Shown here: in pieces, positions 3,661-33,501 of the stretch
Numbering within the stretch: position 1 is the stretch's first letter
Layout of the letters: the number at the start of each line of letters is the position of its first letter
Assembly (NCBI GenBank): GCA_035691845.1
Contig: DASSIN010000161.1
Span: 1 to 58,306 of the forward strand
DNA: 58,306 bases
Reading direction: 5' to 3'
Origin: Candidatus Eiseniibacteriota bacterium
GTDB lineage: Bacteria; Eisenbacteria; RBG-16-71-46
Translations under genes and position numbers: made by a program
Notes under the pieces: generated by a model
Databases searched by the model: none
The model's input: only the letters and a program-made list of their open reading frames with translations
What the model was told of the DNA's origin: nothing

Positions 3661-5640
3661 TCACGCCGCCCTGCGCGACTCCCACACGCGGATCGGCAGG
3701 ATGATCACCTGCACGCCCGCGAACTGCAGCCGGCGCTGGATCGAGAACGCGGTTTCGTGGTGCAGCGAGCGCGAGAACAGGTTCTCGCGCTGGAACACGA
3801 GCTGGCCCGCGAACACCACCGAGCGCCGGAACTCCTTCACCAGGTCGAGCACCATGTTCTCCAGCTCGGCGATCAGATCGGTGCCGATCACGTAGCGGTA
3901 CTCGGCGTACACCCCGAGCCGCTGCGCGAACTGCACGTACTGCTCGAGATCGCCGCGCACCTTGCCCTCCAGCGCCTCCAGGTCCTGCACGCCCTTGAAC
4001 TGGCCGGAGTCCACCACGCCCACGGCGCAGAACACGAAGTTCTTGTAGTAGCGTGGGAACATGCGCTGGATGGTGAGCAGCGTGTGCAGCCCGAGCCCGC
4101 CGTAGGATTCGACCAGCACGATCGCGGTCGGGCCGTCCACCGACAGCTCGGCGGTGTGCGCGGGCTCGTGCAGCGGCAGGTTGGACAGCTCCTCGTCCAG
4201 CGAGCGCAGCATCGCGCGCACGCGCACGTAGTGCCGGCGCACCACGCTGCAGTAGGCGATCAGGAACCCGGTCGCGACCAGCGTCACCCAGCCGCCCTGC
4301 CCGAACTTGATCACCGACGTGACGAGCAGGATCACGCCCGTCACGCACGTGCCGAGCGCGGCCACGAAGATGCGCCGGCGCCAATGGTGCTGCTCGCGGC
4401 GCGTGAGCCACCAGTGCCGCACCATGCCGAGCTGCGACAGCGTGAACGTCATGAACACGTTGATCGAGTACATCACGATCAGGATGTGCACCTGGCCGCG
4501 CGTGTAGGCCAGCACCAGCAGCGCGGCCAGCCCCATGCCGATGACGCCGTTCTGGGTGACGAGCCGCTCGGACAGGTGCGCGAACCGCTTCGGCACCCAC
4601 AGATCCACCGCCATCGCCGCCAGCGTGCGCGGGCCGGCCACGAACCCGGTCTGCGCGGCCACGAACAGCAGCGCGCCCTCGGCCAGCAGCGTCAGCGTCA
4701 CCACCGCGGGCCCGATCTGGAATCCGCCCACGCGCCAGCCGGCGGTGAGCGCCGACCACAGCGACGCGTTCAGCGTGCGGCCCTCCTCGAACCGGACGTT
4801 GGCGAGCAGGTAGCACAGCAGGATGCCGCCGGCCATGAACGCCAGCGAGCACGCCATGTACAGCATCGTGCGCCGGCCGGTGGCCACGCGCGGCTCGCGC
4901 AGGATGTCGGTGCTGTTGCTGACCGCCTCGATGCCGGTGAACGTGCCGCCGCCGAGCGAGTAGGCGCGCAGGAACACCACGATCACGCCCCACAGGCCGA
5001 TCTCGCCGATCGCGCGGCGCGTGTCGGCCAGCGTGTCGGGCACGACGCTCGGCACCTGCGCGCCGTGCACGACCACGCCGTACAGGATCAGCGCCACGTG
5101 CGTGAGCATGAACGCGACGAAGATCGGCGTCAGCACCTTCACCGATTCCTTGACGCCGCGCAGGTTCAAGCCGGTGAGCATCGCCACCACCGCGAACTCG
5201 ACCGGCACCCGCCACGGCAGCCAGCCGTGCGGCAGGAACGAGAAGATCGCGTCCACGCCGGAGGCGATCGAGATCGCGATCGTGAGCACGTAGTCCACGA
5301 CCAGCGCGCACCCCGACACCAGCCCGGGCACGGGCCCGAGCAGCTTGGTGCCCACCAGGTAGCCGCCGCCGCCGCTCGGGAACAGCTCGATGATCTGGCT
5401 GTACGAGGCCGAGATCAGGAACACGGTCACCATCATCGCGACGGCGAGGTAGAGCGCCAGGTGGACGTGGCCGCCGAGGTGGAGGTAGGCCTCCTCGGGG
5501 CCGTAGGAGGAGGACGACAGGCCGTCCGAGCCCAGCCCCACCCACGCGAAGAACGCGACCAGCGCGAGGGTGTGATGGATGCCCGGGTCGAGCAGATTTC
5601 GGGGGCCACCGAGCAGAATCGAGCGCCAGCGTCCGGGCAC
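3661..5640 (-). CDS. APC-family permease with C-terminal soluble domain (KimA/YdaO-like); start approximate
   Basis: DGLSSSSYGPEEA, SYSQIIELFPSGGGGY, LNLRGVKES, FTGIEAVSN, multiple hydrophobic helices followed by a ~130 aa soluble tail. Confidence 0.88.
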   Translation of the reverse strand: MPGRWRSILLGGPRNLLDPGIHHTLALVAFFAWVGLGSDGLSSSSYGPEEAYLHLGGHVHLALYLAVAMMVTVFLISASYSQIIELFPSGGGGYLVGTKLLGPVPGLVSGCALVVDYVLTIAISIASGVDAIFSFLPHGWLPWRVPVEFAVVAMLTGLNLRGVKESVKVLTPIFVAFMLTHVALILYGVVVHGAQVPSVVPDTLADTRRAIGEIGLWGVIVVFLRAYSLGGGTFTGIEAVSNSTDILREPRVATGRRTMLYMACSLAFMAGGILLCYLLANVRFEEGRTLNASLWSALTAGWRVGGFQIGPAVVTLTLLAEGALLFVAAQTGFVAGPRTLAAMAVDLWVPKRFAHLSERLVTQNGVIGMGLAALLVLAYTRGQVHILIVMYSINVFMTFTLSQLGMVRHWWLTRREQHHWRRRIFVAALGTCVTGVILLVTSVIKFGQGGWVTLVATGFLIAYCSVVRRHYVRVRAMLRSLDEELSNLPLHEPAHTAELSVDGPTAIVLVESYGGLGLHTLLTIQRMFPRYYKNFVFCAVGVVDSGQFKGVQDLEALEGKVRGDLEQYVQFAQRLGVYAEYRYVIGTDLIAELENMVLDLVKEFRRSVVFAGQLVFQRENLFSRSLHHETAFSIQRRLQFAGVQVIILPIRVWESRRAA

Positions 5641-5675
5641 GGCGCGCAATCTACGGGGGCGGCGGGATTTCGGCA

Positions 5676-5744
5676 ACGGCCCGCCCGCCGCGGCCGCGTG
5701 CGCCGGGCGCGGATTCCACGGCCCGCCCGTCGCGGCCGCGTGCG
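5676..5744. repeat. 27-nt direct repeat, 2 copies (5676-5702, 5718-5744), 1 mismatch, period 42 nt
   Basis: ACGGCCCGCCCG(C/T)CGCGGCCGCGTGCG read twice in the divergent intergenic gap. Confidence 0.85.
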
Positions 5745-5769
5745 TTACCCTCGATGGCTGGAGCGCACG

Positions 5770-7308
5770 ATGACACCCACTCGCGAACACCCGGGCCGCG
5801 CGGCGGCCGCGCTGGCGCTGACGCTGGCGCTCGGCGCCGGCCGGGCGCACGCCGCGCCGCCGGCGTTCACGCTGTTCGGCTGGGTGAGTCCGCCGCCCGC
5901 CTACACCACGGACGCCCACGTGGCCGAGATGGCGGCGGCCGGGCTCACGCTGATGCTGCCCGCCCAGGACGACTCCGGGCGGGTCGAGGACAACCGCGTG
6001 CGCCTCGACCTGGCGGCCGCGCACGGGCTGAAGTGCATCGTGTGGGACAACCGCTTCGAGCGCGTGGCGAGCCTGGGCGACACCACGGCGGCCGGCGGAG
6101 CGCTGCTCGATTCCATCGTGGCCGACTATCGCGACCATCCGGCGATGTTCGGCTACTACCTGGGCGACGAGCCGACGCGCGACCTGTGGCCGCTGCTCGG
6201 GCGGCTGTTCGCCGAACTGCACGCGCGCGACCCGGTCCATCCGGCGTGGAACAACCTGCTCGGTCGGATCGTCTATCCCGACACGGCCAGCTTCCACGCC
6301 GAACTGCACGACTACGTCGCGGCCGTGCATCCGGCGGTGCTGTCCGACGACCACTACGATTTCGCGGTCGACGGCGACGTGCACGAGTTCTTCGAGAATC
6401 TCTCCGGCCTGGCGGCCGAGGCGCGCGGCGACGGCCTGCCGTTCTGGGTCACGGTGCTGCTCGTCCAGCACACCGGGTTCCGGCAGCCGACGCCCGCGAT
6501 GCTGTCGTGGCAGGCGGCGATGGCGGTGGCGTACGGCGCGCGGGGCGTTGGCTACTTCACGTGGTGGACGCCGCAGCCGGTGTCGTTCTACACGTTCGCG
6601 CCCGCCGTGATCGACACCGACGGGCGGCAGACCGCGTGGTATCCGTTCCTCGAGTGGTTCGATCCCGCCCTGCGCGCGGCGGGGGAGACGCTGGCGCCGC
6701 TCGCATGGCGGGCCACGCTGCACGCTGGCGGAACGCCGCCCGGCGCGCAGCCGTTCGTGCCCGACGCGGACCTCGCCGGCGTCCAGGGCCGCGCCGCGAT
6801 CGGCGAGTTCGCGGACGCCTCGGGCCGGCGCACGGTGATGGTGGTGAACGCCGATTCGCTGGCGCCGCAGCGCGTGACGCTGGCGTTCGCGCCCGTGTTC
6901 GATCTCGAACGCCTGGGTGGTGCCCAGGGGAGCTGGGGTCCGATCGCGGTGCCCGGCGACGGCACCGTGCCGCTCGACCTGCCGGCTGGCGGGTTCGCGG
7001 TGCTGCGGTTCCGCGGACTTTCGGCGGTTTCACCCACCGGGATGGCCCGGTTGACTGCCATCCCGTCACCCGCGCGCGGCCGCGTCTCCCTGGCAGTGTC
7101 CGGGGCGCTCGAAGCCGGCCAATTGGAGGTGCTGGACGCCGCGGGGCGCAAGGTATGGTCGACCCGAACGCGTGCCGGAGACGTCACGTTGGCATGGGAG
7201 GGACAACGCGACGGGGCGGGCTTCGCGGCCCCGGGGGGCTATTTCGCCCGACTGACGACCCGGCAGGGCGTTGCGACGACGCGCTTCGTTTGGCTCGGGA
7301 AACACTGA
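5770..7308 (+). CDS. Secreted glycoside-hydrolase-like TIM-barrel protein with FlgD/T9SS-like CTD
   Basis: Signal peptide ending AHA; GYYLGDEP, VLSDDHYDF, AYGARGVGYF; CTD 'IPSPARG...VLDAAGRKV...WEGQRDGAGFAAPGGYFARL'. Confidence 0.75.
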   Translation: MTPTREHPGRAAAALALTLALGAGRAHAAPPAFTLFGWVSPPPAYTTDAHVAEMAAAGLTLMLPAQDDSGRVEDNRVRLDLAAAHGLKCIVWDNRFERVASLGDTTAAGGALLDSIVADYRDHPAMFGYYLGDEPTRDLWPLLGRLFAELHARDPVHPAWNNLLGRIVYPDTASFHAELHDYVAAVHPAVLSDDHYDFAVDGDVHEFFENLSGLAAEARGDGLPFWVTVLLVQHTGFRQPTPAMLSWQAAMAVAYGARGVGYFTWWTPQPVSFYTFAPAVIDTDGRQTAWYPFLEWFDPALRAAGETLAPLAWRATLHAGGTPPGAQPFVPDADLAGVQGRAAIGEFADASGRRTVMVVNADSLAPQRVTLAFAPVFDLERLGGAQGSWGPIAVPGDGTVPLDLPAGGFAVLRFRGLSAVSPTGMARLTAIPSPARGRVSLAVSGALEAGQLEVLDAAGRKVWSTRTRAGDVTLAWEGQRDGAGFAAPGGYFARLTTRQGVATTRFVWLGKH

Positions 7309-8385: not shown

Positions 8386-8437
8386 GGGGGCCGATCGCCG
8401 CGTGCCAATTGCACGCCGCCTGGGGCATGCTTCCGCC

Positions 8438-9151
8438 GTGACCCGCGCCCGCGCATCGCTCGCTTCGCTGTCGCGCGCCATCGTGCGCTGCGAGCGCTGT
8501 CCCCGGCTGCGCGCGTGGTGCGGCGAGGTGGCGAGCGTCAAACGCCGCGCGTACCGTGACGAGACCTACTGGGGCCGCCCGGTCCCCGGGTTCGGCGATC
8601 CGCACGCCCGGCTGCTGGTCGTGGGGCTCGCGCCCGCGGCGCACGGTGGCAATCGCACGGGCCGCGTGTTCACGGGCGACTCCAGCGGCGACTGGTTGTA
8701 CGAGGCGCTGCACCGGTTCGGGTTCGCGAGCCAGCCGCAGTCGGTGAGCCGCGACGACGGGCTGACGCTGAATGACGCGTGGATCACCGCCGCCGCGCGC
8801 TGCGCGCCGCCCGACAACCGTCCGACGCCAGCCGAGCTCGAGACGTGCGGCCGGTGGCTCCAAGCCGAGCTGGCGCTGCTCGAGCGCGTGCGCGTGGTCG
8901 TCACCCTGGGCCGCATCGCGCACGAGCGCTGGCTGCGCGCGGCGGGGCACTGGCGGCGCCCGGCCGCGGCGCGACCGAAGTTCGCGCACGGCGCCGAGTG
9001 CCGGATCGAGGACGGCACCTGGCTGATCGCCTCGTACCACCCGAGCCGCCAGAACACCCAAACGGGCCGGCTCACGCGCGCGATGTGGCACGAGGTGTTC
9101 CGCCGCGCGCGCGCGCGCCTCGAACCCGGCGGCCCGCGCGATCGCGCTTGA
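8438..9151 (+). CDS. udgB: Uracil-DNA glycosylase family 5 (UdgB, 4Fe-4S type)
   Basis: CERCPRL, YWGRPVPGFGD, GLAPAAHGGNRTGRVFTGDSSG, RCAPPDNRP, SYHPSRQNTQTGRL. Start could be 8402 or 8438. Confidence 0.93.
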   Translation: MTRARASLASLSRAIVRCERCPRLRAWCGEVASVKRRAYRDETYWGRPVPGFGDPHARLLVVGLAPAAHGGNRTGRVFTGDSSGDWLYEALHRFGFASQPQSVSRDDGLTLNDAWITAAARCAPPDNRPTPAELETCGRWLQAELALLERVRVVVTLGRIAHERWLRAAGHWRRPAAARPKFAHGAECRIEDGTWLIASYHPSRQNTQTGRLTRAMWHEVFRRARARLEPGGPRDRA

Positions 9152-9185
9152 CGGCCGCCGCCGGGCGGGCGCAAGGTGCGCGCAT

Positions 9186-9342
9186 CGTTCGGGTGCCCGC
9201 ATTCGCGGGTGAAAAGGGAAGGGGGTGCGAATCCCCCGCGGTCCCGCCACTGTGATGGGCTTCCCGGGTTCACGACGCCACTGTTCGCAAGAATGGGAAG
9301 GCGAGCCCGGGTGACGCTCTCAGTCAGGAAACCTGCCCGGGC
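9186..9342 (+). ncRNA. Cobalamin (AdoCbl-class) riboswitch
   Basis: Ordered hallmark elements AAAAGGGAA-GGGGGTGCGAATCCCCC-GCGGTCCCGCCACTGTGA ... GCCACTG ... TGGGAAGGC ... AGTCAGGAAACCTGCC, upstream of a TonB-dependent receptor. Confidence 0.93.
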
Positions 9343-9407
9343 TGTACGAGCCTGTCTGCTCCGGTGAAGAGCGGCGCCCGATCGAGCCCACGTTCCCGTG
9401 GCTCCCG

Positions 9408-9440
9408 AGGTCCCGTTCGCGGCCGCGAGCGGGGCCTTTC
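9408..9440 (+). terminator. Riboswitch expression-platform terminator hairpin
   Basis: 13-bp stem AGGTCCCGTTCGC / GCGAGCGGGGCCT (three G-U pairs), loop GGCC, followed by TTC; lies between aptamer and GTG 9461. Confidence 0.65.
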
Positions 9441-9460
9441 GATTGGGCGCGCGCGACGCC

Positions 9461-11569
9461 GTGATCGGACTCCTGCTGCTGGCCGTGCTCGCCGTTGCGG
9501 CGCGCGATTCGCTCACGCCTGGGCCCTCGCCGGCCGCGCCCGATTCCGTCGGCGCGCGTTCCGCCGCGCCTTTCGCCGGCGCCCGCGACTCGGTGCTGCT
9601 GTTGCCCGAGGTGCGCGTGCGCGCGCCGCGCGTGCCGGCCGCCCTGCGCCGCATGCCGACGGTGTTCGTGCGCGAGCTGGACGCCGCCCATCAGCTGCAG
9701 GCGGTGCGCTCGCTGCCCGAGCTGCTGGCGCGGGCGCCGGGCGTCAGGGTGCTGGACTACGGCGGGCTCGGGGCGTTCAGCACGATCTCGCTGCGCGGCA
9801 GCGCGCCCGACCAGGTGGCGGTGCTGCTCGACGGCGTGCCGCTGACGGGCGCCGCCCGCGGCGTCGTCAACCTGGCCGATCTGCCCGCCACCGCGATCGA
9901 ACGGGTCGAGGTGTATCCCTACGCCGCGCCGCTGGCGTGGGGCGCGGCGCTGCCGGCGGGAGCGGTCAACTTCGTGACCGCCGCGGACGCGGGGCTGCGG
10001 GCGTTGCGCGTCGCGCGCGGCTCGTTCGGCACGTGGGAGACCGCGGGTGGCGCAGGCTGGGGCGGTCCCATGGCGAGCGCCGTGGTGCATGCCGGCTACC
10101 AGGGTTCGCGCGGCGACTTCCGCTACCTCGACACCCACGGCACGCCGTTCGAGCCCGGCGACGACGCGGAGCGCACGCGCGCCAACGATCGCTTCGACGC
10201 GTTCGCGGGCCTCGCCTCGCTGCGCGCGCGACGCGGCGCGTGGTTCGCGCGCGCGCACGAGGACCTGCTGCGCCACGCGCAGGGCCTGCCCGGGCTGGGC
10301 GCGGTGCCGGCGCTGCATGCGCGGCTCTCGATGCTGCAGTCGCTCACCGTGCTCGACGCCGGTCGCGACCCCTCCGCGGACTGGCCGGGCGTGGAGCTGG
10401 AAGCGGGCATGGACCGCCAGCGATCCCGGTTCCAGGACCTGGGCCTGCCGGATCGCGGCGAGCTGGGCGGCACGCGCCACGACACGGACGACATGATCGG
10501 CGCCGAGCGCGGGCGCGTCGCGGCGGTGGAGAGCTGGCGCGCGTGGCGGCTGGAGGGCGAGGCCGACGTGCGCGCCGAGCACGCGCGGCTCGCCGACGCC
10601 GCGGACGGGCTGCCCGATCCCGCGCCGAGCTGGCGCCACGCGCACGGCGCCTCGGGCACGCTGCGATGGTCGCCGTGGCGCGGCCGCATCACGCTGCAGG
10701 GCGCGCGCCGCTGGGAGCGCGTGACGGATCGCCTGCACCCGGCCGGCCTGGGCGTGCCCGCGATCGTGGTGGCGCGCGAGGTCGCCACGCCGCAGCTCGG
10801 CGCGCGCGTGGCGCTGCCGGCGGGATGCGAGCTGCGCGGCAACGCCACCGACGCCGAGCGCGTGCCCGATTTCACCGAGCTGTTCGGCAATCAGGGCACG
10901 GTGTCGGCCAACCCCCGGCTGCGCCCCGAGCGCGTCCGCTCGGCCGACGCCGGGCTCGCGTGGCACGGCGCGCGCGGCGCGTGGCGGGCGAGCGGCTCGT
11001 GGGCGCACTTCGGCTCGCGCGCCCGCGATCTCGTGCTGTGGTGGAAGAACTCGCCCAACACCGTGCAGGCGCTGAACGTGCTCTCGGCGCGCATCACGGG
11101 CGACGAGCTGGCATGGGCGGCGGCGACGCCGGGCGGGTTCGAGCTGTCCGCCTCCGGCACCTGGCAGGACGCGCGCAACACCGCCGCCGTGCCGGCGTAC
11201 GCCGCCGGCAAGGCGCTGCCGCTGCGCCCGCGCGCGCTGGTCTCGGCCGCGCTGGCGTGGCGCCACGGGCCGCTCGCGCTCTCCGCCGACCTCCAGCACC
11301 TCGGCGCCGACGCGCTCGACCCCGCCAACCGCCAGCGCGTGCCCGCCCGCACGCTCACCGGCGCCACGCTGGCGTGGGCGTGGGGCGCGGACGCGGCCGA
11401 CGCGCCCGCGGCCGACGCGCCCGCGGCGCGCAGCCTGACCGTGATGTTCGAAGTCCGCAATCTCGGCGACGTGCGCGCCTCCGATCTCGGCGGCTTTCCG
11501 CTGCCCGGTCGCAGCGTGTTCGTCGCGCTCGAAGCCCGCCATTCGCGTTCCCAGGATTCCGCGCCATGA
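9461..11569 (+). CDS. btuB: TonB-dependent receptor, probable cobalamin importer (BtuB-like)
   Basis: Plug motif ELLARAPGV...STISLRGSAPDQVAVLLDGVPL...IERVEV; barrel motifs PDFTELF, NPRLRPER, VRNLGD, LPGRSVF. Substrate inferred from the riboswitch. Start placed after the terminator hairpin. Confidence 0.85.
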   Translation: MIGLLLLAVLAVAARDSLTPGPSPAAPDSVGARSAAPFAGARDSVLLLPEVRVRAPRVPAALRRMPTVFVRELDAAHQLQAVRSLPELLARAPGVRVLDYGGLGAFSTISLRGSAPDQVAVLLDGVPLTGAARGVVNLADLPATAIERVEVYPYAAPLAWGAALPAGAVNFVTAADAGLRALRVARGSFGTWETAGGAGWGGPMASAVVHAGYQGSRGDFRYLDTHGTPFEPGDDAERTRANDRFDAFAGLASLRARRGAWFARAHEDLLRHAQGLPGLGAVPALHARLSMLQSLTVLDAGRDPSADWPGVELEAGMDRQRSRFQDLGLPDRGELGGTRHDTDDMIGAERGRVAAVESWRAWRLEGEADVRAEHARLADAADGLPDPAPSWRHAHGASGTLRWSPWRGRITLQGARRWERVTDRLHPAGLGVPAIVVAREVATPQLGARVALPAGCELRGNATDAERVPDFTELFGNQGTVSANPRLRPERVRSADAGLAWHGARGAWRASGSWAHFGSRARDLVLWWKNSPNTVQALNVLSARITGDELAWAAATPGGFELSASGTWQDARNTAAVPAYAAGKALPLRPRALVSAALAWRHGPLALSADLQHLGADALDPANRQRVPARTLTGATLAWAWGADAADAPAADAPAARSLTVMFEVRNLGDVRASDLGGFPLPGRSVFVALEARHSRSQDSAP
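11396..11425 (+). repeat. 15-nt in-frame tandem duplication (ADAPA x2) in a late loop of the receptor
   Basis: GCCGACGCGCCCGCG repeated exactly twice. Confidence 0.85.
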
Positions 11570-11601
11570 CCATGGCGCCCGTGATGCCGAACGAGGAGAC
11601 C

Positions 11602-13035
11602 ATGATGCCGTATCCGCGCCACACCCTCGCGCTGCTGCTGCTGGCCGCCACCGCCGTTTCCGCCCATGCCTCGACGCATGCCTACGTGCTCACCAGCGAC
11701 TACTCGAATGGCGGCGTGAGCGTGGCCGACCTCGCCACGCGCACGATGACACGCGACGTCGCCACCGTGTACGAGGACGCGGTCGAGCGCTGGTATCAGG
11801 GCAGGCTGTACGTCGTGAACCGCTACGGCGCCGACAACGTGCAGGTGATCGATCCGGCCGCCGGCTACGCCACCGTCAAGCAGTTCTCGGTCGGCAGCGG
11901 CAGCAATCCGCAGGACATCGCGCTGGTGTCGCCGACGCGCGCATACGTGTCGCGCCTGGGTTCGCCCGATCTGCTGATCGTGAACCCCACGACCGGCGCC
12001 ACGCTCGGCAGCGTGTCACTGGCGGCGTTCGCGGACGCCGACGGCAATCCCGAGGCGGCGCGCATGACGCTGGTGCCGCCGTTCCTGTTCGTGGCGCTGC
12101 AGCGGCTCACGAACTTCCAGCCGCAGCAGGCGGCGATGGTGGCGGTGGTGGACACGCGCGCCGACACGCTGTACGACACCGACCTCGCGACCCCCGGCGT
12201 GCAGGCGATCACGCTGCCGGCGAAGAACCCGGTCACCACGTTCACCGTGCTGCCCGACGGGGCGCCGTATCCCGATCTCCATCTGCTGATCGGCTGCGCC
12301 GGGGCCTACGGCGCGGCCGACGGCGGGATCGCGGACATCGTCGTCACCGGGCTGGCCGAGAACCCGCACCCGGCGATGGCGAGCGCGGGGCTGATCGCGA
12401 CCGAGGCCGCACTCGGCGGCGACGTGGTGGGCGTCGCCTACTATCTGCCGGATCACTCGTACGCCGTCGTCAGCGACGCGTCGTTCAACACCCGGCTCGT
12501 GGCATGGGATCCGCGCACCGGCGGCGTGGTCGGCACCGTCTACGATCCGGGCGGATTCTCGATCGCCGATGCCGCGGTGAACGACCGCCGCGAGCTGTGG
12601 GTGTGCGACAACGGCCTCGCCGCGCCCGGCGTGCGCGTGTTCCGCGCGGGCGCCGACAGCCTGCTCGCCGGCCCGCTCGATGCCGGCCTGCCGCCCGTCG
12701 GCGTCACCTTCGACGAGCTGGAGGACGTTCCGGCCGGCGTTCCAGGCCCGACGCCGCCCGCGTTCGCGCTCGCGCGGCCGACCCCAAACCCGGCGCTGCG
12801 TGTCGCGCATCTCGCGCTCGCGACGCCGCGCGACACGCGCGTGCGCGTTCAGGTGTTCGACGCCGCCGGACGTCGTGTCGCCACGCTGTTCGACGGCATC
12901 GCGCGAGCCGGAACCCTCGCGCTCGACTGGGACCTGAAGGATCGGTCCGGGAACGCGGTGGCGGCTGGGGTGTATGTCGTCCAGGCCGACGGCGAAGGGG
13001 CGAGATCGGAAGGGAAAATCGTCGTCCTGCGCTGA
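11602..13035 (+). CDS. YncE/BtuG-like beta-propeller with FlgD/T9SS-like CTD
   Basis: GAGGAG RBS; signal peptide ending AHA with no lipobox Cys; blades such as LYVVNRYGADNVQVID and NPQDIALVSPTRAYVSR; CTD PTPNPALR...VFDAAGRRVATL...WDLKDRSGNAVAAGVY. Confidence 0.85.
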   Translation: MMPYPRHTLALLLLAATAVSAHASTHAYVLTSDYSNGGVSVADLATRTMTRDVATVYEDAVERWYQGRLYVVNRYGADNVQVIDPAAGYATVKQFSVGSGSNPQDIALVSPTRAYVSRLGSPDLLIVNPTTGATLGSVSLAAFADADGNPEAARMTLVPPFLFVALQRLTNFQPQQAAMVAVVDTRADTLYDTDLATPGVQAITLPAKNPVTTFTVLPDGAPYPDLHLLIGCAGAYGAADGGIADIVVTGLAENPHPAMASAGLIATEAALGGDVVGVAYYLPDHSYAVVSDASFNTRLVAWDPRTGGVVGTVYDPGGFSIADAAVNDRRELWVCDNGLAAPGVRVFRAGADSLLAGPLDAGLPPVGVTFDELEDVPAGVPGPTPPAFALARPTPNPALRVAHLALATPRDTRVRVQVFDAAGRRVATLFDGIARAGTLALDWDLKDRSGNAVAAGVYVVQADGEGARSEGKIVVLR

Positions 13036-13489
13036 CACTCCGGGTTTTGGCCTTGCATTGCGGCAGAAAATGGGCGACAAACTGCCCCGCCGGGAGACAG
13101 AGTGTCGCGTGTCGCCGCAACGCCAAGGCGGCCGCGACGCTCCACGATCGATTCGCACGCGGGCCGTGACAGGCTGTCCCGATTCGCTACGGAACGCGTG
13201 CGATGGCGATGTGCCGCGAGGCCGCGCGGCATCGCGCAAGTCGTTCCACCCCAGGAGATTTCACCGGCTGCGAGAATTGCGGCTCGTTGGCCCCGTGCTT
13301 GCTGCGCGATGAGGCGGAAGTGACGGCCTCGCCGACGCCGCGCGCGGGCGTCATTTCGACCGGAGCGCGATTCGCGACCGGGCGCACGCCTGGTCAACCC
13401 CTGCGAACGTTCCTCCACACTCCGAAGCCACGCCGTTGCTGTTTCGGTCCGCCCCCGAGGGACTTGCTCGCCCTCCGCATGGAGGAATA

Positions 13490-14230
13490 TTGCGTTTTCG
13501 ACCCTTGCCGATGCTCCTCGTCGTTGCATGCGCAGCATGGCCGCTGCTCGCGCAAGGTTCCGAAATCGACTCCGATCCTTCGACTCCGCCCCCCGCCCCA
13601 GGCAGCCCTTCGCCCACGATCGCGCAGAGTCCCACCGGCAACGCCATCACCGTCACGCTGGCCTGGACGGCGCCCGGTGACGACAGCTTGAGCGGGATCG
13701 CGACCGCGTACGACATGCGCTACTCCAGCGCGCCGATCTACGACTGGAACTTCGGCAGCGGCACGAAGGTGATCGGCATGCCGGTGCCGGGCGCGCCCGG
13801 CACGCTGCAGTCGGTGGCGGTGTCGAACCTGCTGTCCGGCACCACCTACTACTTCGCCATCAAGACCGCCGACGAGCGCGGCAACTGGTCCGGGATCTCG
13901 AACGTCGTGGTCAAGACCGGCGGCACCGCGTCCACGCCGGGGATCGCGATGGGCGAGCTCGATTTCGCCGCGCCCAGCCCCAATCCGGCGCGTTCGAGCA
14001 CCAGCTTCCAGTTCGCGCTTCCGCACGAGGACCGCGTGCAGGCCGACGCCTTCGACATCATGGGCCGGCACGTGCGCACGCTGCTCTCCGGCACCAGGCC
14101 GGCGGGCCACGGCCAGGTGTCGTGGGACTTGAGCGACGAGGCGGGGGCCGCGCTGCCGGCCGGCATCTACCTGGTGCGCGCGACGCTCGGGAACCAGAGC
14201 TTCAACCGGCGCGTGGTCATCGTGAGGTGA
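13490..14230 (+). CDS. Secreted fibronectin type III + FlgD/T9SS-like CTD protein
   Basis: GGAGGA RBS before TTG 13490 gives an RFR-led signal peptide; Pro-rich linker; FN3 'LAWTAPGDD...YDMRYS...L.SGTTYYFAIKTADERGNWSGISN'; CTD PSPNPARS...WDLSDEAG...AGIYLVR. Confidence 0.85.
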   Translation: MRFRPLPMLLVVACAAWPLLAQGSEIDSDPSTPPPAPGSPSPTIAQSPTGNAITVTLAWTAPGDDSLSGIATAYDMRYSSAPIYDWNFGSGTKVIGMPVPGAPGTLQSVAVSNLLSGTTYYFAIKTADERGNWSGISNVVVKTGGTASTPGIAMGELDFAAPSPNPARSSTSFQFALPHEDRVQADAFDIMGRHVRTLLSGTRPAGHGQVSWDLSDEAGAALPAGIYLVRATLGNQSFNRRVVIVR

Positions 14231-17479: not shown

Positions 17480-20059
17480 TCACCGCAGCACCACGATCGG
17501 CCGCGTGATCGCTTGCGCTCCCGCCGCGAGCCGCGCCAGGTAGACGCCGGGCGCGACCGGCCGGCCGAGATCGTCGGCCAGATCCCACGCCAGCGCGTAG
17601 CGGCCGGCGGCGTACGGCGCGGCCGCCAGCGTGCGCACGCGGCGGCCCTGCACGTCGAGCACGTCGAGCGCCACGCGCGCGGCGCGCGGCAGATCGAACG
17701 CCAGCCGCGCCAGCCCCCGCGCCGGGTTGGGCGAGGGGCGATCGAACGCCAGGCGCGCCGCGGGCGGCGCGCCCGGCACGGCGGTCGGCACCGGCTGCAC
17801 GGCGGGATCGAACACCAGCACGCGCAGCGAGTCCAGGTTCATGCCGTCCAGGTCGAGGCCGGAATCGGAGCGCGAGCGCAGCCGGATGCGGATCTTCGTG
17901 CGGCCCGGGCCCGCGAACGGCGACAGGTCCACCCGGTCCGCGCTCCACAGCCAGCGGCCGCCGGTCCATTCGGGCACGCCGTTCGGGATCGAGTTCCCGG
18001 ACTGCGTGCCCACCGCGCTCGCGCGCGCCGGAAGCGGCGTCCACGTCACCGAATCGGGGCTGGCCTCGAACACCGCGCCATCGTAGAACTGCTCCAGGTT
18101 GAAGCGGTCGTCGAGCAGCGCCCAGGCGTGCACGCCGTGCGACAGATCGAGCGGGGCGCTCGCGATCAGCGCGGCGCTCATGTTGGTGGGATAGATGCCC
18201 GCCGGGCTGTCCGAGGCGTAGCGGCTCGGGTGGCGCGGATCGTTCTGCACGATTCCGTAGCCGCCGGAGGCGCTCCACGCGCCGAGCGTGTTGAACGGCT
18301 CGATCCGCAGCGTGGTGGGCGTGCCGAGCAGCACTTCGACCGTGTCGCGCGCGAAGCATTCGCCGGCCCCCGAGAACTCCAGCGCGAACCGCACCAGCCG
18401 GCCCGGCGTCACCGTGTCGGAGCACGACACCGCGAACGTGGCGCCGCCGATGGCGTCGGCGCTGGTGCGGCTCGCCATCGCGGGATAGCTGACCGTGGCC
18501 GTGTCCACGAACACGCCCGCATCCAGCGGGGACAGCGTGGCGGTGAGCGGCGCGGGCGTGGCGGCCAGGCCCAGGTTGCGCGCGCGCACCGACAGGTGCG
18601 CGCGGAAGCCGGCGTCGAGCGCGCCCTCCACGATCGCCGAGCGCTCGACCCGCGGGTAGGGGCCGGCGATCGCGGCCACGAACCACGCCTTGCGCAGGTT
18701 GTCCTCGGCCAGCGGCACGATGCGCGAGGGCGCGGGCCAGAACCCGTCGTCCGCGGTGCCGATCTCGGGCGTCCACGTGAACCCGCGCGGCTTGGCGAGC
18801 GTGTCGCCGTACACCCAGTCGTTGAACTCGCCGTTCACGCGGTACAGCACGCGCGAGGAGTTGCCGCTGGAGTAGCCGCTGCCGATCGTGGCCGCGTCGT
18901 TCCATTCGTAGAACGCCTGCGAATCGGGCGCGGCCGCCGCCTGGTAGCCCCATGGGTGCAGGAACAGATCGCTGTAGGTGTGGTACGCGAGCCCGGTCCT
19001 GGGCTGCAGCCGGACGACGACGTCGCGTTGCGCCTGTGTCTCCGGCTCCGACACCGGGGCCGGGCCGCGATAGTCTTCGGTCGAGCTGTCCGGCTCCGAG
19101 CCGATGTCGTCGAGCCCCCACATGAAGCTGAAGTTGCGGTTGATGTCCACGCCGTCGAAACCGTAGTCCACGATGCCGTTGCCGTTGACGTCGCGCACGT
19201 TCTTGCGGTGGAATCCGCCGCCCGCCGGATGCGTGATGCGGTTCAGCTCGTAGCCATCCGGGTTCACCACCGGCACGATGTACAGCCGGCGCGTGTCGAG
19301 CAGCGAGGTGGCGAACGGATCGCTGCCGTACTTCGACAGGATGTCGTGCACGAAGTAGAGCAGCGCCTGCATCCCCTCCGGCTCGCGCGCGTGGGTCAAG
19401 GCGCTGTAGAACACGACCGGCCGCGGATCGGGGCCGGTCACGCGCCGCCCCAGCGCGAGCCCCCAGATCGGCCGGCCCTGCAGCGTGTAGCCCAGCGTGT
19501 CGAGCTGGTCGGCGACGATGTCGTGCGTGTCGGCGGCCACCAGCGAATCGAGCTCCATCTTCACTTCGTCGAGCGTCCAGTAGCCGCCCATGCTGCCGGA
19601 GCCGAACGGCGGCAGGCTCTGCGCGCGGAACGCGCCGTCCGGAGCGGTCGCGCTGATCACGCGCGCGGGCATGGCACGCGGTCGGGCGGCCAGCTCGCGC
19701 GCGGCGCGCGCGGCCGCGGAGCGCGCCGGGTCGGGATCGAGCACCTCGGTCGCGGCGCCGAGCGCGGCCAGCTTCGCCGCGTCGCCCGGCCACTCCAGCA
19801 CGTCCGCCCACGCGCCGCCGCGCACGCCCACCACGTCGAGCCCGGCCGCGAGCACGCGATCGAGCGTGAGCGCCGCCGTCAGCCGGACGCGCACGAGCTG
19901 CGGCTCCGAGACCGCGATCGCCGCGTTGCGCCACGCGATCGCGGACGCCGGAACCACGGCGCCTGCGCCCGGGGCCGGACCCAGGGCGAGCGCCAGCGCG
20001 AACGCCGCGCCCGCCCGGCAGGCGGGCCGCGGCGCCGGGGCCGGGCGGGGGAGCGTCAT
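17480..20059 (-). CDS. M14 zinc carboxypeptidase with Ig-like/jelly-roll accessory domains and FlgD/T9SS-like CTD
   Basis: HAREPE (H-x2-E), VNPDGY, RKN, GVDINRNF, YHTYS, PEIG; CTD PSPNPARG...WDLADDLGRPVAPGVYLARL. Confidence 0.92.
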   Translation of the reverse strand: MTLPRPAPAPRPACRAGAAFALALALGPAPGAGAVVPASAIAWRNAAIAVSEPQLVRVRLTAALTLDRVLAAGLDVVGVRGGAWADVLEWPGDAAKLAALGAATEVLDPDPARSAAARAARELAARPRAMPARVISATAPDGAFRAQSLPPFGSGSMGGYWTLDEVKMELDSLVAADTHDIVADQLDTLGYTLQGRPIWGLALGRRVTGPDPRPVVFYSALTHAREPEGMQALLYFVHDILSKYGSDPFATSLLDTRRLYIVPVVNPDGYELNRITHPAGGGFHRKNVRDVNGNGIVDYGFDGVDINRNFSFMWGLDDIGSEPDSSTEDYRGPAPVSEPETQAQRDVVVRLQPRTGLAYHTYSDLFLHPWGYQAAAAPDSQAFYEWNDAATIGSGYSSGNSSRVLYRVNGEFNDWVYGDTLAKPRGFTWTPEIGTADDGFWPAPSRIVPLAEDNLRKAWFVAAIAGPYPRVERSAIVEGALDAGFRAHLSVRARNLGLAATPAPLTATLSPLDAGVFVDTATVSYPAMASRTSADAIGGATFAVSCSDTVTPGRLVRFALEFSGAGECFARDTVEVLLGTPTTLRIEPFNTLGAWSASGGYGIVQNDPRHPSRYASDSPAGIYPTNMSAALIASAPLDLSHGVHAWALLDDRFNLEQFYDGAVFEASPDSVTWTPLPARASAVGTQSGNSIPNGVPEWTGGRWLWSADRVDLSPFAGPGRTKIRIRLRSRSDSGLDLDGMNLDSLRVLVFDPAVQPVPTAVPGAPPAARLAFDRPSPNPARGLARLAFDLPRAARVALDVLDVQGRRVRTLAAAPYAAGRYALAWDLADDLGRPVAPGVYLARLAAGAQAITRPIVVLR

Positions 20060-29688: not shown

Positions 29689-30855
29689 TCACCGGCTCGG
29701 GCTCGCCGCCCATCCCCCATGCGGGGTCGCGCGCGTGACGATCCGCAGCGGCTGGAGCGACACGAAGAATCCCCGCCGGTGGACGTCCGACAACCCCGCG
29801 GCCTCCGGAACCGAACCCTCGTCGTACCGGATGCCGGCGTAAGGCGTCTCGAAACCGACGCCCCATCCGAACGTGTCGGCGACGATGTCCCCGGCGCGGT
29901 CCTCGACGTGCCCGAACCGGAGCCACGCGACGTGCGCGAACCCGAGCTCGAGGCCGGCGTGCGTGACGTGGTAGCTCTCTGGGCCGCTGCCGGCGTGGAC
30001 GGACTCGTGCTCGAACGCGCCCGCGAGAGAGATCATCGGCGTCAGCGTTTCCAGCAGCCAGGGTGCCATGCGGACGCCCTCGGGCCAGCCCAGCGTGGTG
30101 CGCAGCGCGGCGCCATCGCGGGCGATGCGCGAGGTGGGCGCGCGCTCGCTCAGGAACGTGATCGCGGCGTCGTTGCTGTTCTCGATCGAGTGCCCGTACG
30201 ACGCGTCGATACGCAGCGGCAGCGCGGCGCCCGCCATCCGCGAGCCGTCGAAGGGGGTCATGCGGACCAGCACCCCGATGTCGGTGGCGGGCGTGGAGCC
30301 CTGCGCCCCCAGGATCGGCGCCAGCGCCACATCGACGTGCTTGCGATTGTATCCGAACGCCACGTCGACGAACCGGCCGACTCCGGGCGCATCCCGTCCG
30401 AATAGCCGTGCCGCGCCATCCACCAGCGACGCCGCGCTCACCCCGACTCCCCACGACGAGATCTTCTCGTACGATGAAAATATCCCCACCACGTTGCCGG
30501 ATTCGTCGGTCACCATCGATGGGCCGTAGTCGAGCCTCGAGTAACCGCCCAGTGAAGCGCCGACGCCGCCCGCGGCGACGATGTAGCGGTCGGTGGTGAA
30601 GAACACGTCGGAGGACAGGTCCGGCACGAGCTGCTCGCGCATGTGCTCGTAACGCAGGCCGTCGTGGTACGCCAGCAGCGCGGGATTGGCCCAATGGTTG
30701 GGATCGCCCCAGAACACGGCGTTGCTGGCGCCCCCCATCCCGGCGGAGATGGGCGAGGGGTCGAGGTCGAGGCTGCGCGCGGTGCCTTGGGCGAATGACG
30801 TGCGCGGCGAGGCGAGCGTGACCAGGGCGAAGGCGATGATCGGCCAACGGCTCAT
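29689..30855 (-). CDS. PorV-family outer-membrane beta-barrel protein
   Basis: Signal peptide; 'LDPSPISAGMGGA...WANPALLAY', 'QLVPDLSSD' and 'YGPSMVTDESGNVVGIFSSYE' parallel the PorV N-terminal motifs; alternating strand pattern. Confidence 0.75.
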   Translation of the reverse strand: MSRWPIIAFALVTLASPRTSFAQGTARSLDLDPSPISAGMGGASNAVFWGDPNHWANPALLAYHDGLRYEHMREQLVPDLSSDVFFTTDRYIVAAGGVGASLGGYSRLDYGPSMVTDESGNVVGIFSSYEKISSWGVGVSAASLVDGAARLFGRDAPGVGRFVDVAFGYNRKHVDVALAPILGAQGSTPATDIGVLVRMTPFDGSRMAGAALPLRIDASYGHSIENSNDAAITFLSERAPTSRIARDGAALRTTLGWPEGVRMAPWLLETLTPMISLAGAFEHESVHAGSGPESYHVTHAGLELGFAHVAWLRFGHVEDRAGDIVADTFGWGVGFETPYAGIRYDEGSVPEAAGLSDVHRRGFFVSLQPLRIVTRATPHGGWAASPSR

Positions 30856-31143
30856 GGCGTGAGGCCTTCCTGGGGGAGGATACGACCGGAACGTTATCAC
30901 GCGACTGCCCGACCGGTTCGTGGATTTTCGGAGCCGGCGAACGTGGCGGGGACCGACGGTCCCCGCCCGATTCCGAAACCACGTTCGATTGAAGGGTTTG
31001 CGCCGCGCCTGGCGCGGGGTAGGCTTGTCGCGCTGGTACCGTGCCGTCGGCCGACCCCTCGCACTTCGAAGCGCCGCCCTCGAGACACCCGCATGGTGAC
31101 TCCGGCCGCGGCGCGGCACCCCGCTCCGAAAGGCTCGATCCCC

Positions 31144-33501
31144 GTGCGTTCAGCGCTCCCGAGAAGCCTCGCCCTGGTGCTGGTGCTCGCCTTTGCGCTC
31201 GGCCCCGTGACGTCGTCCCTCGCGGCCACCCCGTTCCCGATGGCGGGCGGCAATTACTTCGAGAACTTCGACGACATCGCGAACTGGACCAACAACTTCG
31301 CGGCCGGGATCGGCGCGCAGTATTGGGCCTCGGTGCCCGTCAACAGCAGCGGCACGATCCCCGACGGCGTCAGGATCACCGTGAGCACGGCCACGTTCGT
31401 GTCGGGCACGACGGGCGGCGTGCAGAAAGGCACGGGCACGATCGAGCTGCTGTCCACGAACGGCACCGACAACATCAACGCCGACGCCATCGACCTGCTG
31501 CTCGACTTCACCGGCATGACGGCCGGCACGTTGAGCTACGACTTCGCCACGGTGTTCAACACCACCGGCAACCGCAACGGCTCGCTGCGCGTCTACACCA
31601 GCACCGACGGCGTCACGTTCACCGAGCTCACCGCCGCCTCGGTCGTCAACTTCCAGAACAACGTCACGTTCTCGAAGCAGGTCTCGCTGGTCCAGCTGCC
31701 GGCGTCGTTCACGAACTGCGCGACGGCGCGCATCCGGTTCTACGACTACAACGGCACCGGGCCATCCGGCTCGTCGGGCGCGCGGCCCAAGGCCTCGATC
31801 GACAACGTCGCCGTGACCGCCACACCGATCAGCGCGGGCGGCCCCGGCGGGCCCGTGATCTCGAACATCGCGACGTTGCCGGCGACGCCGCTGGACACGC
31901 TCGGCGTCGACGTCCAGGCCAGCGTTGTGGACAGCGCGCGCGCGTTGGATGCGGTCTCGCTGGCGTGGGGGCTGAACAGCGCCACGCTCACCAACGTCAT
32001 CAGCATGGGACCCACGGGCGGAGACACGTGGCAGACGGCGCAACCGGTCCCGCCCGAGCCCGGCGGCACCCACGTCTACTACCAGATCACCGCCGTCGAC
32101 GACTCCGCCACCGTGCAGTCGCCGATCCTCGACTACACCGTCACCGCCACGGGCGGTGGCGGCAGCGCGGCGCCCGTTATCACCTCGGTGTACGAGGCCA
32201 GCGACTCGACGCTGCAGGTGTGGTTCAACGAGCCGGTCGACTCCGCCAGTGCGCAGACGCCGGGCAACTACGACGTGAACGGCATCGTGGCCGTGGCCGC
32301 CGCGCGCGACCCGGGCTCGGCCGCTCGCGTGATCATCACCGTGCGCGCCATTCCCGCCGGCGACCGGACGCTCACCGTGAACGGCGTCGGCGATCTGGCC
32401 GATGCGCACTTCACCCGCAACGCCACGTTCGCATTCCACTTCGTGGACGTGTCGATCCCGGCCGCCTACTACGCCAGCGCCGCCGGCCTGCGCGGCTCGG
32501 CGCTGCTGATCGCGCTCCACAACATCATCAAGGGGCACACGGCGCTCACCTACACCGCCACCGCCACCGCGTTCCAGCACACCGACAAGCGCCCCGACGG
32601 CAACGTGTGGGACGTGTATTCCGACGTGCCGGGCGGGACGCCGCCGTACGAGTACGCGTTCGGCCCGCTGGGCTCGGGCAGCACCGAGGGCGTTGCGTAC
32701 AACCGCGAGCACTCGTTCCCGCAGTCGTGGTTCGGCGGCAGCGTGCTGCCGATGTACTCGGACCTGTGGATCATCTACCCGACCGACTCCAAGGTGAACA
32801 GCGAGCGCGGCAACTACCCCTACGGCAAGGTCGGCACCGCGACGTGGACGTCGCTGAACGGCACCCGGCTCGGCAACTGCGTGTCGCCGGGGTACACCGG
32901 CACCTGCTTCGAGCCGATCGACGGCTACAAGGGCGATCTCGCCCGCAGCCAGTTCTACGTGGCCACGCGCTACTACGGCGAGGACGCCTCGTGGCCGGGC
33001 GGCGCTTCGACCGACAAATCGCAGCTGCTGCCGTGGGCGGCCGACCAGTACATGCTGTGGAGCCTGGCCGACTCCGTGAGCTGGAAGGAGCGCGTGCGCA
33101 ACGCCGCGATCTACGAATACCAGCACAACCGCAACCCGTTCGTCGATCACCCCGAGTACGTGAGCGCGATCTGGGACTCCGCCAACGTCACCGGCGTCGG
33201 CGGCGGGACAGCCACGCCGCGGCACGCCATGCTGCGCGCCGCGATGCCGAACCCGTTCCAGGCGCGCACCACGCTTCGCTACGACCTGCCGCGGCGCGAC
33301 CGCGTGACGCTGCGCGTCTACGACCTCTCCGGACGGCTGGTGCGCTCGCTCGTGTCCGGCGCGCTGCAGGACGCCGGACGGCACGCGTGCGAGTGGGATG
33401 GCCGCGACGACGCCGGCGCCCCGATGGCCGCGGGGCTCTACTTCGGCCGGCTCGAGGCGGGCGCGGAACACGACGTGAGCCGGCTGGTGCGGATCCGCTG
33501 A
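31144..33501 (+). CDS. Secreted endonuclease I (EndA/Bsn-type) with N-terminal accessory domains and FlgD/T9SS-like CTD
   Basis: Signal peptide; VWDVYS, YNREHSFPQSW, YPTDSKVNSERGNYPYG, KGDLARSQFYVATRY, ERVRNAAIYEYQHNRNPFVDHPE; CTD PNPFQ...YDLSGRLVRSL...WDGRDDAG. Confidence 0.9.
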   Translation: MRSALPRSLALVLVLAFALGPVTSSLAATPFPMAGGNYFENFDDIANWTNNFAAGIGAQYWASVPVNSSGTIPDGVRITVSTATFVSGTTGGVQKGTGTIELLSTNGTDNINADAIDLLLDFTGMTAGTLSYDFATVFNTTGNRNGSLRVYTSTDGVTFTELTAASVVNFQNNVTFSKQVSLVQLPASFTNCATARIRFYDYNGTGPSGSSGARPKASIDNVAVTATPISAGGPGGPVISNIATLPATPLDTLGVDVQASVVDSARALDAVSLAWGLNSATLTNVISMGPTGGDTWQTAQPVPPEPGGTHVYYQITAVDDSATVQSPILDYTVTATGGGGSAAPVITSVYEASDSTLQVWFNEPVDSASAQTPGNYDVNGIVAVAAARDPGSAARVIITVRAIPAGDRTLTVNGVGDLADAHFTRNATFAFHFVDVSIPAAYYASAAGLRGSALLIALHNIIKGHTALTYTATATAFQHTDKRPDGNVWDVYSDVPGGTPPYEYAFGPLGSGSTEGVAYNREHSFPQSWFGGSVLPMYSDLWIIYPTDSKVNSERGNYPYGKVGTATWTSLNGTRLGNCVSPGYTGTCFEPIDGYKGDLARSQFYVATRYYGEDASWPGGASTDKSQLLPWAADQYMLWSLADSVSWKERVRNAAIYEYQHNRNPFVDHPEYVSAIWDSANVTGVGGGTATPRHAMLRAAMPNPFQARTTLRYDLPRRDRVTLRVYDLSGRLVRSLVSGALQDAGRHACEWDGRDDAGAPMAAGLYFGRLEAGAEHDVSRLVRIR

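Follow-up and report, generated by a model that had tools for sequence, protein, structure and literature searches.

In the 58,306-nucleotide stretch of Candidatus Eiseniibacteriota DNA analysed here (GenBank assembly GCA_035691845.1, contig DASSIN010000161.1; hereafter the window), the gene at 11602-13035 (+) encodes a 477-residue protein that carries a beta-propeller with seven blades. Comparisons of fold and profile identify the propeller as a remote homologue of BtuG, the partner of the B12 transporter BtuB in Bacteroides. The gene lies behind a cobalamin riboswitch and a BtuB-like TonB-dependent transporter (TBDT). Its product ends in a C-terminal domain (CTD) that resembles the sorting signals of the type IX secretion system (T9SS). 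From these sequence and model data, we consider it probable that the protein is exported by the T9SS and captures corrinoids as a partner of the BtuB-like transporter.

Most microbes need B12 but few make it, and its capture therefore shapes communities. The extracellular step of this capture, by BtuG, is known from gut Bacteroidetes only. BtuG has been reported to be exclusive to Bacteroidetes, on BlastP evidence (PMC6143338). Transporter lids in general have been described as almost confined to Bacteroidota, and other diderms were guessed to be unable to export such lipoproteins (10.1101/2023.03.17.533168). BtuJ and BtuH outside Bacteroidota are treated in a 2026 review of the Bacteroides relay, which in the passages retrieved does not take up BtuG there. 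A full-text literature search returned no paper linking BtuG to type IX secretion in the sense used here, or Eisenbacteria to T9SS. If the reading proposed here is right, the capture device is neither confined to Bacteroidetes nor bound to a single mode of attachment.

Fold, ancestry and predicted ligand site

The protein consists of a signal peptide, a propeller, a Pro-rich linker, and a CTD (Table 1). Read from the translation, its N-terminus, MMPYPRHTLALLLLAATAVSAHA followed by STHAY after the predicted cut, is charged at the start, hydrophobic in its core, and closed by the cleavage motif AHA. The first Cys of the protein is residue 232, and there is therefore no lipobox. An AlphaFold2 model built with 35 homologues reached a mean predicted local distance difference test (pLDDT) score of 88.3. 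It has 28 strands within residues 26-370, which form seven blades of four strands each, and pLDDT in this part is mostly above 85. The CTD (residues 395-477) is modeled as a six-strand sandwich with pLDDT above 90. No family in Pfam or NCBIfam covers residues 24-390. More than 500 homologues share the same length and architecture, so the observed arrangement is not a matter of chance. The original prediction, made from the sequence alone, had described a roughly seven-bladed, YncE-like propeller with a type I signal lacking a lipobox Cys. The 28 modeled strands, the predicted cleavage site between AHA and Ser, and the position of the first Cys agree with that description, with YncE taking the place of a secondary structural neighbor.

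The closest solved folds are those of BtuG. In a Foldseek search of the PDB, BtuG1, BtuG2, and BtuG3 accounted for 14 of the 15 top matches, with E values from 7e-15 to 1.2e-12. The entries matched were BtuG2 (8BMY, 8BAI, 8BN0, 8BMZ, 8BMX, and 3DSM), BtuG3 (8OKV and 8P97), and BtuG1 (8PTD), and these PDB codes were confirmed as BtuG against two structural papers. Normalized to target length, the TM-scores of the BtuG matches were 0.62-0.72, with an outlier of 0.49 for chain D of 8BMX. The remaining entry among the top 15 was PorZ, which was matched via the tail. The next propellers were YncE (1.4e-9) and XusB (6.7e-9), followed by cd1 nitrite reductase; the three BtuG proteins were ahead of every other propeller by five orders of magnitude in E value. 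The structural comparison with BtuG2 for which the original prediction had called thus places BtuG2 entries among the best matches.

At the sequence level, the relationship becomes visible with profiles. A PDB search with the single sequence returned matches to FlgD and to the tail only, and the propeller needed a profile. The family profile matched nine propeller sequences in the PDB at E values of about 0.002, and all nine were BtuG2 or BtuG3. With a propeller-only profile the matches were again BtuG alone, at E values of 0.012-0.03, which are weaker because the alignment is shallower. In hhalign, the family profile aligned with a BtuG profile at 85.7% probability (E 5.5e-6) over 181 columns across blades 1 to 5. 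The BtuG side of this comparison consisted of nine aligned Bacteroides BtuG proteins. Full-length BtuG sequences were retrieved by embedding a BtuG3 fragment in a length-matched query and scoring the fragment region alone; the fragment by itself received no family name from Pfam. PF16819 (DUF5074) was present in 119 of the 120 Bacteroides BtuG proteins listed. On these fold and profile comparisons, the propeller is a remote homologue of BtuG that lies outside PF16819, and the BtuG-like character that had been predicted for it is upheld.

The corrin contacts of BtuG2 are listed in two studies (10.1101/2024.02.16.580637; PMC10404256), and the residues E55, G56, F58, Q93, N107, S131, W149, W194, S195, Q219, W272, Y316, and Y335 were tracked here. 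The first row of the BtuG alignment (P0389) is numbered BtuG2 plus one, which was checked on 13 contact residues. In the hhalign alignment, N107 and Q219 of BtuG2 correspond to N73 and Q201, and both are identical. The S131-Pro pair of BtuG2 aligns with N102-P103, where N102 is polar, and the Arg that follows it aligns with Q104. The DGG turn of BtuG2 aligns with D240-G-G. All of these residues (N73, N102-P103, Q104, Q201, and D240-G-G) are invariant in 35 family members. The invariant polar residues of the propeller family are D33, D59, N73, R74, N102, Q104, D105, R168, Q201, and C232. In the strand order of the AlphaFold2 model, each is found either where an innermost strand ends C-terminally and passes into an A-B loop, or in a C-D loop. 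Judged by this strand order rather than by superposition, they would lie on one face around the central channel, which is the B12 face of BtuG. Since invariant residues occupy BtuG contact positions, the model points to a likely conserved pocket in the BtuG position whose chemistry is partly different.

One of these residues, Cys232 (codon 12295-12297, within LLIGCAG), is present without exception in 35 of 35 close family members, whereas some distant lipoprotein relatives have Ser, Asn, or Glu instead. By the modeled strand order, it closes the innermost strand of blade 5 and belongs to the predicted ligand face. As pure speculation, it could be a cobalt ligand or a redox residue.

The riboswitch-controlled locus and its relatives

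The window has a G+C content of 72.6%, and the cobalamin riboswitch is the sole element that an Rfam scan matched in it. The match to RF00174 extends over the full length of the model (positions 1-189) and scores 116 bits (E 2e-28; gathering score 31.5). The region 9160-9430 showed no extra stability over shuffled sequence when folded (z -0.46). The transporter frame opens 44 bases 3' of the aptamer. Its product contains a Plug domain (E 1.2e-15) and a TonB_dep_Rec_b-barrel domain (E 1.5e-18). The transporter fails the BtuB equivalog cut-offs, with 95 bits against 599.7 for TIGR01779 (TonB-B12) and 58 bits against 836 for NF007926. In a PDB sequence search, its best matches were to BtuB of E. 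coli and BtuB1 of B. thetaiotaomicron, in each case in the plug domain. Its role in B12 uptake is assigned from the riboswitch.

The stop codon of the transporter gene (TGA, 11567-11569) is separated by 32 nt from the ATG of the propeller gene at 11602. The spacing from the Shine-Dalgarno sequence GAGGAG is better for a second ATG, at 11605. Third-position G+C in the frame of 11602 is 0.84-0.98 from about 11520 to about 12960, and the frame is therefore coding. A scan of the spacer for sigma-70-type promoters and intrinsic terminators, the two patterns that it covered, found no site of either kind. The transporter and the propeller protein are probably made from one riboswitch-controlled mRNA. 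The original prediction had placed the propeller gene 32 nt after a riboswitch-controlled receptor and had linked it to B12; the first of these statements is matched by the aptamer score, the Plug and barrel domains, and the codon positions given above.

The link to B12 is seen again in the relatives, among which the original prediction had also suggested a survey of synteny. One genome per species was scanned, 500 relatives were found, and the best 80 of these 500 were used as the locus set; these 80 come from Eisenbacteria, Krumholzibacteriota, and Latescibacterota. Forty-three related loci had enough upstream sequence for an Rfam search. Two of them (L001 and L002) duplicate two others (L014 and L020), which leaves 41 distinct loci. 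A cobalamin riboswitch is located 2.2-2.7 kb upstream on the same strand in 42 of the 43 loci, or 40 of the 41 distinct ones. The one locus without it, L063, has a transporter that was matched by a fragment only. In every related locus with enough flank, a TBDT lies directly upstream of the propeller gene, between riboswitch and propeller. The order of riboswitch, TBDT, and propeller is therefore kept across three candidate phyla, with either a CTD form or a lipoprotein form of the propeller in the last slot. Complete loci of the Eisenbacteria type (L026, L027, and L035) were also found in bins labeled Udaeobacter (Verrucomicrobiota), Acidiferrales (Acidobacteriota), and Limnocylindria (Chloroflexota). 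Their propellers fall inside Eisenbacteria clades of the tree, so these are probably mis-binned contigs and not transfers, and they were not counted as additional phyla.

Within the phylum, the propeller gene is present in 134 of 206 genomes, nearly always as a single copy, and in almost all genomes of the family to which the window belongs; the genome of the window has one copy. A propeller-only profile was also searched against 1.84 billion representative proteins. It matched 2,820 clusters at 50% identity, 561 of them at E values of 1e-30 or below, including lipoproteins, tandem propellers, and proteins with other N- or C-terminal domains. One lipoprotein member (L089) is encoded behind a riboswitch and a transporter, beside TonB and BtuCDF-like genes. 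Several distant members (P0125, P0140, P0158, P0159, P0166, P0181, P0219, and P0269) have a tandem double propeller, Cys-rich or large N-terminal domains, or long C-terminal domains, and most of them have a lipobox.

Predicted export by tail or anchoring by lipid

The tail of the protein belongs to a group of domains that is common in this genome. Pfam matches PF13860 (FlgD_ig) at residues 412-464 with 32.3 bits against a cut-off of 27, and NCBIfam gives 22.3 bits for TIGR04183 (Por_Secre_tail), just under the cut-off of 23. These two scores, along with the modeled six-strand sandwich, agree with the FlgD/T9SS-like CTD that had been predicted. PF18962 scores 14 bits against a cut-off of 27. 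Local NCBIfam matches of the tail are to the CTDs of both PorU and PorZ, and the family profile matches the PorU CTD (6za2) at E 1.9e-5. When aligned, the tail shares the motifs PxPNP, D..GR.V, AG..W, GxY, and a terminal Arg (or His) with five other cargo tails of the window. The same tail occurs in more than 40 other reading frames of the genome, at least five of which are inside the window.

The core of the T9SS is encoded in the same genome assembly, which comprises 3.35 Mb in 316 contigs and is 94% complete. SprA is found on contig C144 (529 bits). A PorU-type sortase is found on contig C223 (439 bits) and is adjoined by a PorV-family gene. At least eight PorV/PorQ-family genes score over the cut-off in the genome, and no PorQ equivalog does. 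The window itself also contains a barrel gene (29689-31119, -) that scores 29 bits for PorV_fam against a cut-off of 90; better PorV/PorQ-family genes are located elsewhere in the genome.

The same operon slot holds either a form with a CTD and no lipobox or a short lipoprotein form with no CTD. About 70 of the 80 locus proteins have 450-505 residues, an N-terminus of the signal-peptidase-I type, and a tail ending in GVY(L/F)VRA...RR(L/I)VV(L/V)R. Seven short forms from Eisenbacteria (L032, L033, L036, L037, L038, L043, and L046) have a lipobox Cys, in the context AGCS or GGCS, and no tail. Six of them are complete, with 367-379 residues, and end six residues past the last blade and past the GLPP motif; the L046 frame is truncated where its contig stops. 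A riboswitch is present in all five of the seven loci in which this could be checked. Across 238 members with complete N-termini, 138 have a tail and no lipobox, 42 have a lipobox and no tail, four have both according to a crude pattern match, and 54, made up of fragments, divergent tails, and other fusions, have neither.

Between the Cys and blade 1, the lipoprotein forms have a median of 20.5 residues. Mature tail forms, in contrast, start straight into blade 1 and have their linker, of about 24 residues, behind the last blade. Since linkers of similar length are found at opposite ends of the chain, the tether seems to have been moved from one end to the other. A maximum-likelihood tree built on the propeller domain joins the lipoprotein forms from Eisenbacteria in one clade (SH-aLRT support 99), which is nested inside tail-bearing clades. 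Over the whole tree, well-supported branches force at least five changes of anchor and parsimony gives eight; none of 500 label shuffles gave as few. A secretion CTD in place of a lipid, which the original prediction had proposed for this protein and its lineage, is thus borne out by the near-exclusive occurrence of CTD and lipobox, by their shared operon slot, and by the presence of the T9SS core genes.

Proposed function, known systems and neighboring genes

The following course of events can be proposed. When B12 is scarce, the riboswitch would allow expression of the transporter and, most likely, of the propeller protein from the same mRNA; when B12 is plentiful, this mRNA would be shut down. 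The propeller protein would cross the inner membrane by the Sec pathway and be cut after AHA by signal peptidase I. The CTD would then route it through the T9SS, by way of the SprA translocon and the PorV shuttle, and a PorU-type sortase would remove the tail. The propeller would come to lie outside the outer membrane, most likely tethered at its new C-terminus via the 24-residue Pro-rich linker. A corrinoid may be bound on the face of A-B and C-D loops around the central channel, as in BtuG. The ligand may finally be handed to the BtuB-like barrel beneath the propeller, as BtuG does for BtuB.

Several observations weigh against this proposal. The identity of the protein to BtuG is 12-17%, and PF16819 has no match in it at E values up to 1. 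The aromatic cage of BtuG2 is not conserved where the two families align: G120 stands in the position of W149, and Q167 and R168 in those of W194 and S195. W272, Y316, and Y335 of BtuG2, which belong to later blades, fall outside the aligned stretch. On the side of export, the TIGR04183 score of the tail is below the cut-off of 23. The best match to a PorZ orthologue in the genome reaches 75 bits against a cut-off of 260 and covers the C-terminal part only; an attachment complex of the P. gingivalis type is therefore not demonstrated. On the side of regulation, a scan for intrinsic-terminator patterns found no terminator-like site on the + strand 3' of the aptamer. With no expression platform of the terminator type found there, the riboswitch may work at the level of TBDT translation, and the second gene would then be affected indirectly. 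Lastly, a lipoprotein member of the family (L090, 3084-6454) follows a TBDT beside TonB/ExbB/ExbD genes and has no cobalamin riboswitch. A strict link between the propeller family and B12 was rejected on account of this transporter without a riboswitch.

The main rival keeps the same protein and the same export, and differs in what happens afterwards. The tail would be cut and the propeller released as a diffusible corrinoid scavenger, or cobalaphore, that later docks on the transporter. We regard this as possible and clearly less probable than retention at the surface. There are organisms, Flavobacterium among them, in which T9SS type-A cargo is set free instead of being anchored. The lack of a PorZ orthologue over the cut-off and the mature N-terminus that runs straight into blade 1, leaving no N-terminal tether, would fit with release. 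However, the close relatives in the same operon slot are tethered lipoproteins, and the function therefore tolerates or needs attachment. The Pro-rich linker is also kept, at a length near that of the lipoprotein linker, and looks like a relocated tether. Furthermore, the BtuG-BtuB complex of Bacteroides is stable and has a very large interface (PMC10404256).

Two other explanations question the ligand or the tail. The protein could be a B12-regulated transporter accessory that does not itself bind corrinoids. It might then be a cap with a structural role, or an enzyme whose substrate is a corrinoid or something else that the transporter takes up. The aromatic cage, not conserved where aligned, and the lack of a Pfam assignment for the propeller family would fit with this, and the invariant Cys232 and the many invariant Asp, Asn, and Arg residues could equally serve catalysis. 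Such a function is nevertheless improbable: the invariant residues map onto ligand-contact positions of BtuG, two of them being identical, no enzyme ranks above BtuG in the PDB fold search, and the riboswitch and the BtuB-type neighbor are kept across three phyla. Still less credence can be given to the idea that the CTD is a structural FlgD-like Ig domain and not a secretion signal, with the protein remaining periplasmic like E. coli YncE. The best Pfam match of the tail is indeed FlgD_ig, TIGR04183 falls 0.7 bit short of its cut-off, and YncE is among the structural neighbors. Yet more than 40 secreted proteins that have nothing else in common end in this domain, and their genome encodes SprA, PorU, and PorV. 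The domain also matches the CTDs of PorU and PorZ, and the motifs PxPNP and GxY and the terminal basic motif are present in it. In addition, it is lost exactly where a lipobox appears.

As judged from sequence, the T9SS-exported propeller proposed here would be the same device as BtuG and shares its ancestry, while its route of export and attachment and its taxonomic range differ. BtuG1, BtuG2, and BtuG3 of B. thetaiotaomicron (BT1490, BT1954, and BT2095; PF16819; 3DSM, 8BAI, 8BMX-8BN0, 8OKV, 8PTD, and 8P97) are likewise seven-bladed and have the closest solved fold. As with BtuG, the propeller gene directly follows a btuB-type transporter gene in a unit with a corrinoid riboswitch, and in the stretch that aligns, several corrin-contact positions are kept as invariant polar residues. 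Unlike BtuG, the protein does not match PF16819, its identity to BtuG is low, and the aromatic cage is not conserved where the sequences align. Its export also differs: instead of a lipobox Cys and the Bacteroidota lipoprotein export signal, it has a signal for signal peptidase I and a T9SS-type CTD on a Pro-rich linker. Whereas BtuG has been reported for Bacteroidetes, the present family is found in Eisenbacteria, Krumholzibacteriota, and Latescibacterota.

The lipoprotein members of the family itself (for example the seven short forms named above and P0124; about 370 residues) occupy the same slot and are 53-58% identical to the propeller of the window over the propeller domain. They differ in having a lipobox, in a linker, about 20 residues long, that precedes blade 1, and in lacking the CTD. 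T9SS type-A cargo (TIGR04183/PF18962), such as the gingipains and PorU of Porphyromonas gingivalis, likewise has at its C-terminus a beta-sandwich, about 80 residues long, in which the motifs PxPNP and GxY occur. Unlike known cargo of this type, the protein described here is a putative nutrient-capture propeller encoded in a riboswitch-controlled uptake operon, and its tail scores better as FlgD_ig than as Por_Secre_tail. E. coli YncE (3VGZ and 3VH0) is likewise a seven-bladed propeller of the YVTN type; its Foldseek E value is five orders worse than that of BtuG, and it has no CTD. YncE is encoded beside the TBDT YncD and is not known to have a B12 riboswitch.

These comparisons bear on how bacteria outside Bacteroidota might expose a transporter lid. 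Delivery by the T9SS, exchanging with lipidation inside one clade, would be a testable answer. It would also add a new physiological class of cargo to the T9SS. The gene for this homologous, putative catcher is nearly a core gene, present in single copy, in Eisenbacteria from soil and groundwater and in neighboring candidate phyla. BtuG2 already serves as a reagent for stripping corrinoids from soil extracts, and the roughly 2,800 sequence clusters may be a source of new corrinoid binders. A broader view can be offered tentatively, although we think it unlikely to hold as a whole. The BtuB-BtuG lidded importer would not be an invention of Bacteroidetes but one branch of the large, unnamed propeller family outside Pfam, which extends over candidate phyla of the Fibrobacteres-Chlorobi-Bacteroidetes group and beyond. 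In this family, the anchor would have been swapped repeatedly among a lipid, a T9SS tail, and other fusions. T9SS forms might be shed as cobalaphores, and Cys232, at the mouth of the central channel, might ligate cobalt.

Table 1. Positions in the window of the riboswitch, the genes and protein parts discussed, and other reading frames with a similar tail.
Feature	Position	Strand	Basis
Cobalamin riboswitch aptamer (RF00174)	9174..9354	+	Full-length Rfam match; homologous aptamer at the same relative place in 40/41 distinct related loci
BtuB-like TBDT, 723 aa as translated, true start codon uncertain	9398..11569	+	Plug and beta-barrel domains
Intergenic spacer, 32 nt, with Shine-Dalgarno GAGGAG (11593-11598)	11570..11601	+	Read from sequence
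Sec type I signal peptide, residues 1-23, predicted cleavage between AHA and S, no lipobox Cys	11602..11670	+	Translation; similar N-terminus in about 70 CTD-bearing homologues
Seven-bladed BtuG-like beta-propeller, residues 24-370	11671..12711	+	AlphaFold2 model, Foldseek, hhalign
Pro-rich flexible linker, residues 371-394, DELEDVPAGVPGPTPPAFALARPT	12712..12783	+	pLDDT 60-63, no secondary structure
T9SS type-A-like C-terminal sorting domain, residues 395-477, and stop codon	12784..13035	+	PF13860, TIGR04183 (below cut-off), AlphaFold2 model
Small secreted fn3 and CTD protein, membership in the unit uncertain	13511..14230	+	fn3, FlgD_ig, Por_Secre_tail 29.5 bits (above cut-off)
Large 1,183-aa cargo with FlgD_ig-type tail	3757-7308	+	
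M14 carboxypeptidase with MAM-like domain and FlgD_ig-type tail	17480-20059	-	
Endonuclease I with FlgD_ig-type tail	30859-33501	+	
DUF5122 propeller with FlgD_ig-type tail	53160-55700	+	

The genes on either side of the unit were also inspected. A gene of the uracil-DNA glycosylase superfamily (8402-9151, +) lies 5' of the riboswitch, as it does in L001 and L002, and has no obvious functional link to the unit. On the other side, an fn3-bearing gene follows the propeller gene in 23 distinct Eisenbacteria loci of the 80, and some loci (L029, L044, and L071) have two tandem copies of it. The encoded fn3 and CTD protein was considered as a BtuH-like second binder and rejected: its AlphaFold2 model matched in Foldseek only generic fn3 pairs and the Ig domain and CTD of PorU, and synteny is its sole link to B12. 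Between the propeller gene and the fn3 gene, about 475 nt (13036-13510) carry no convincing coding signal and no Rfam match. The comparable gap is 437 nt in L001 and only 47 nt in L002.

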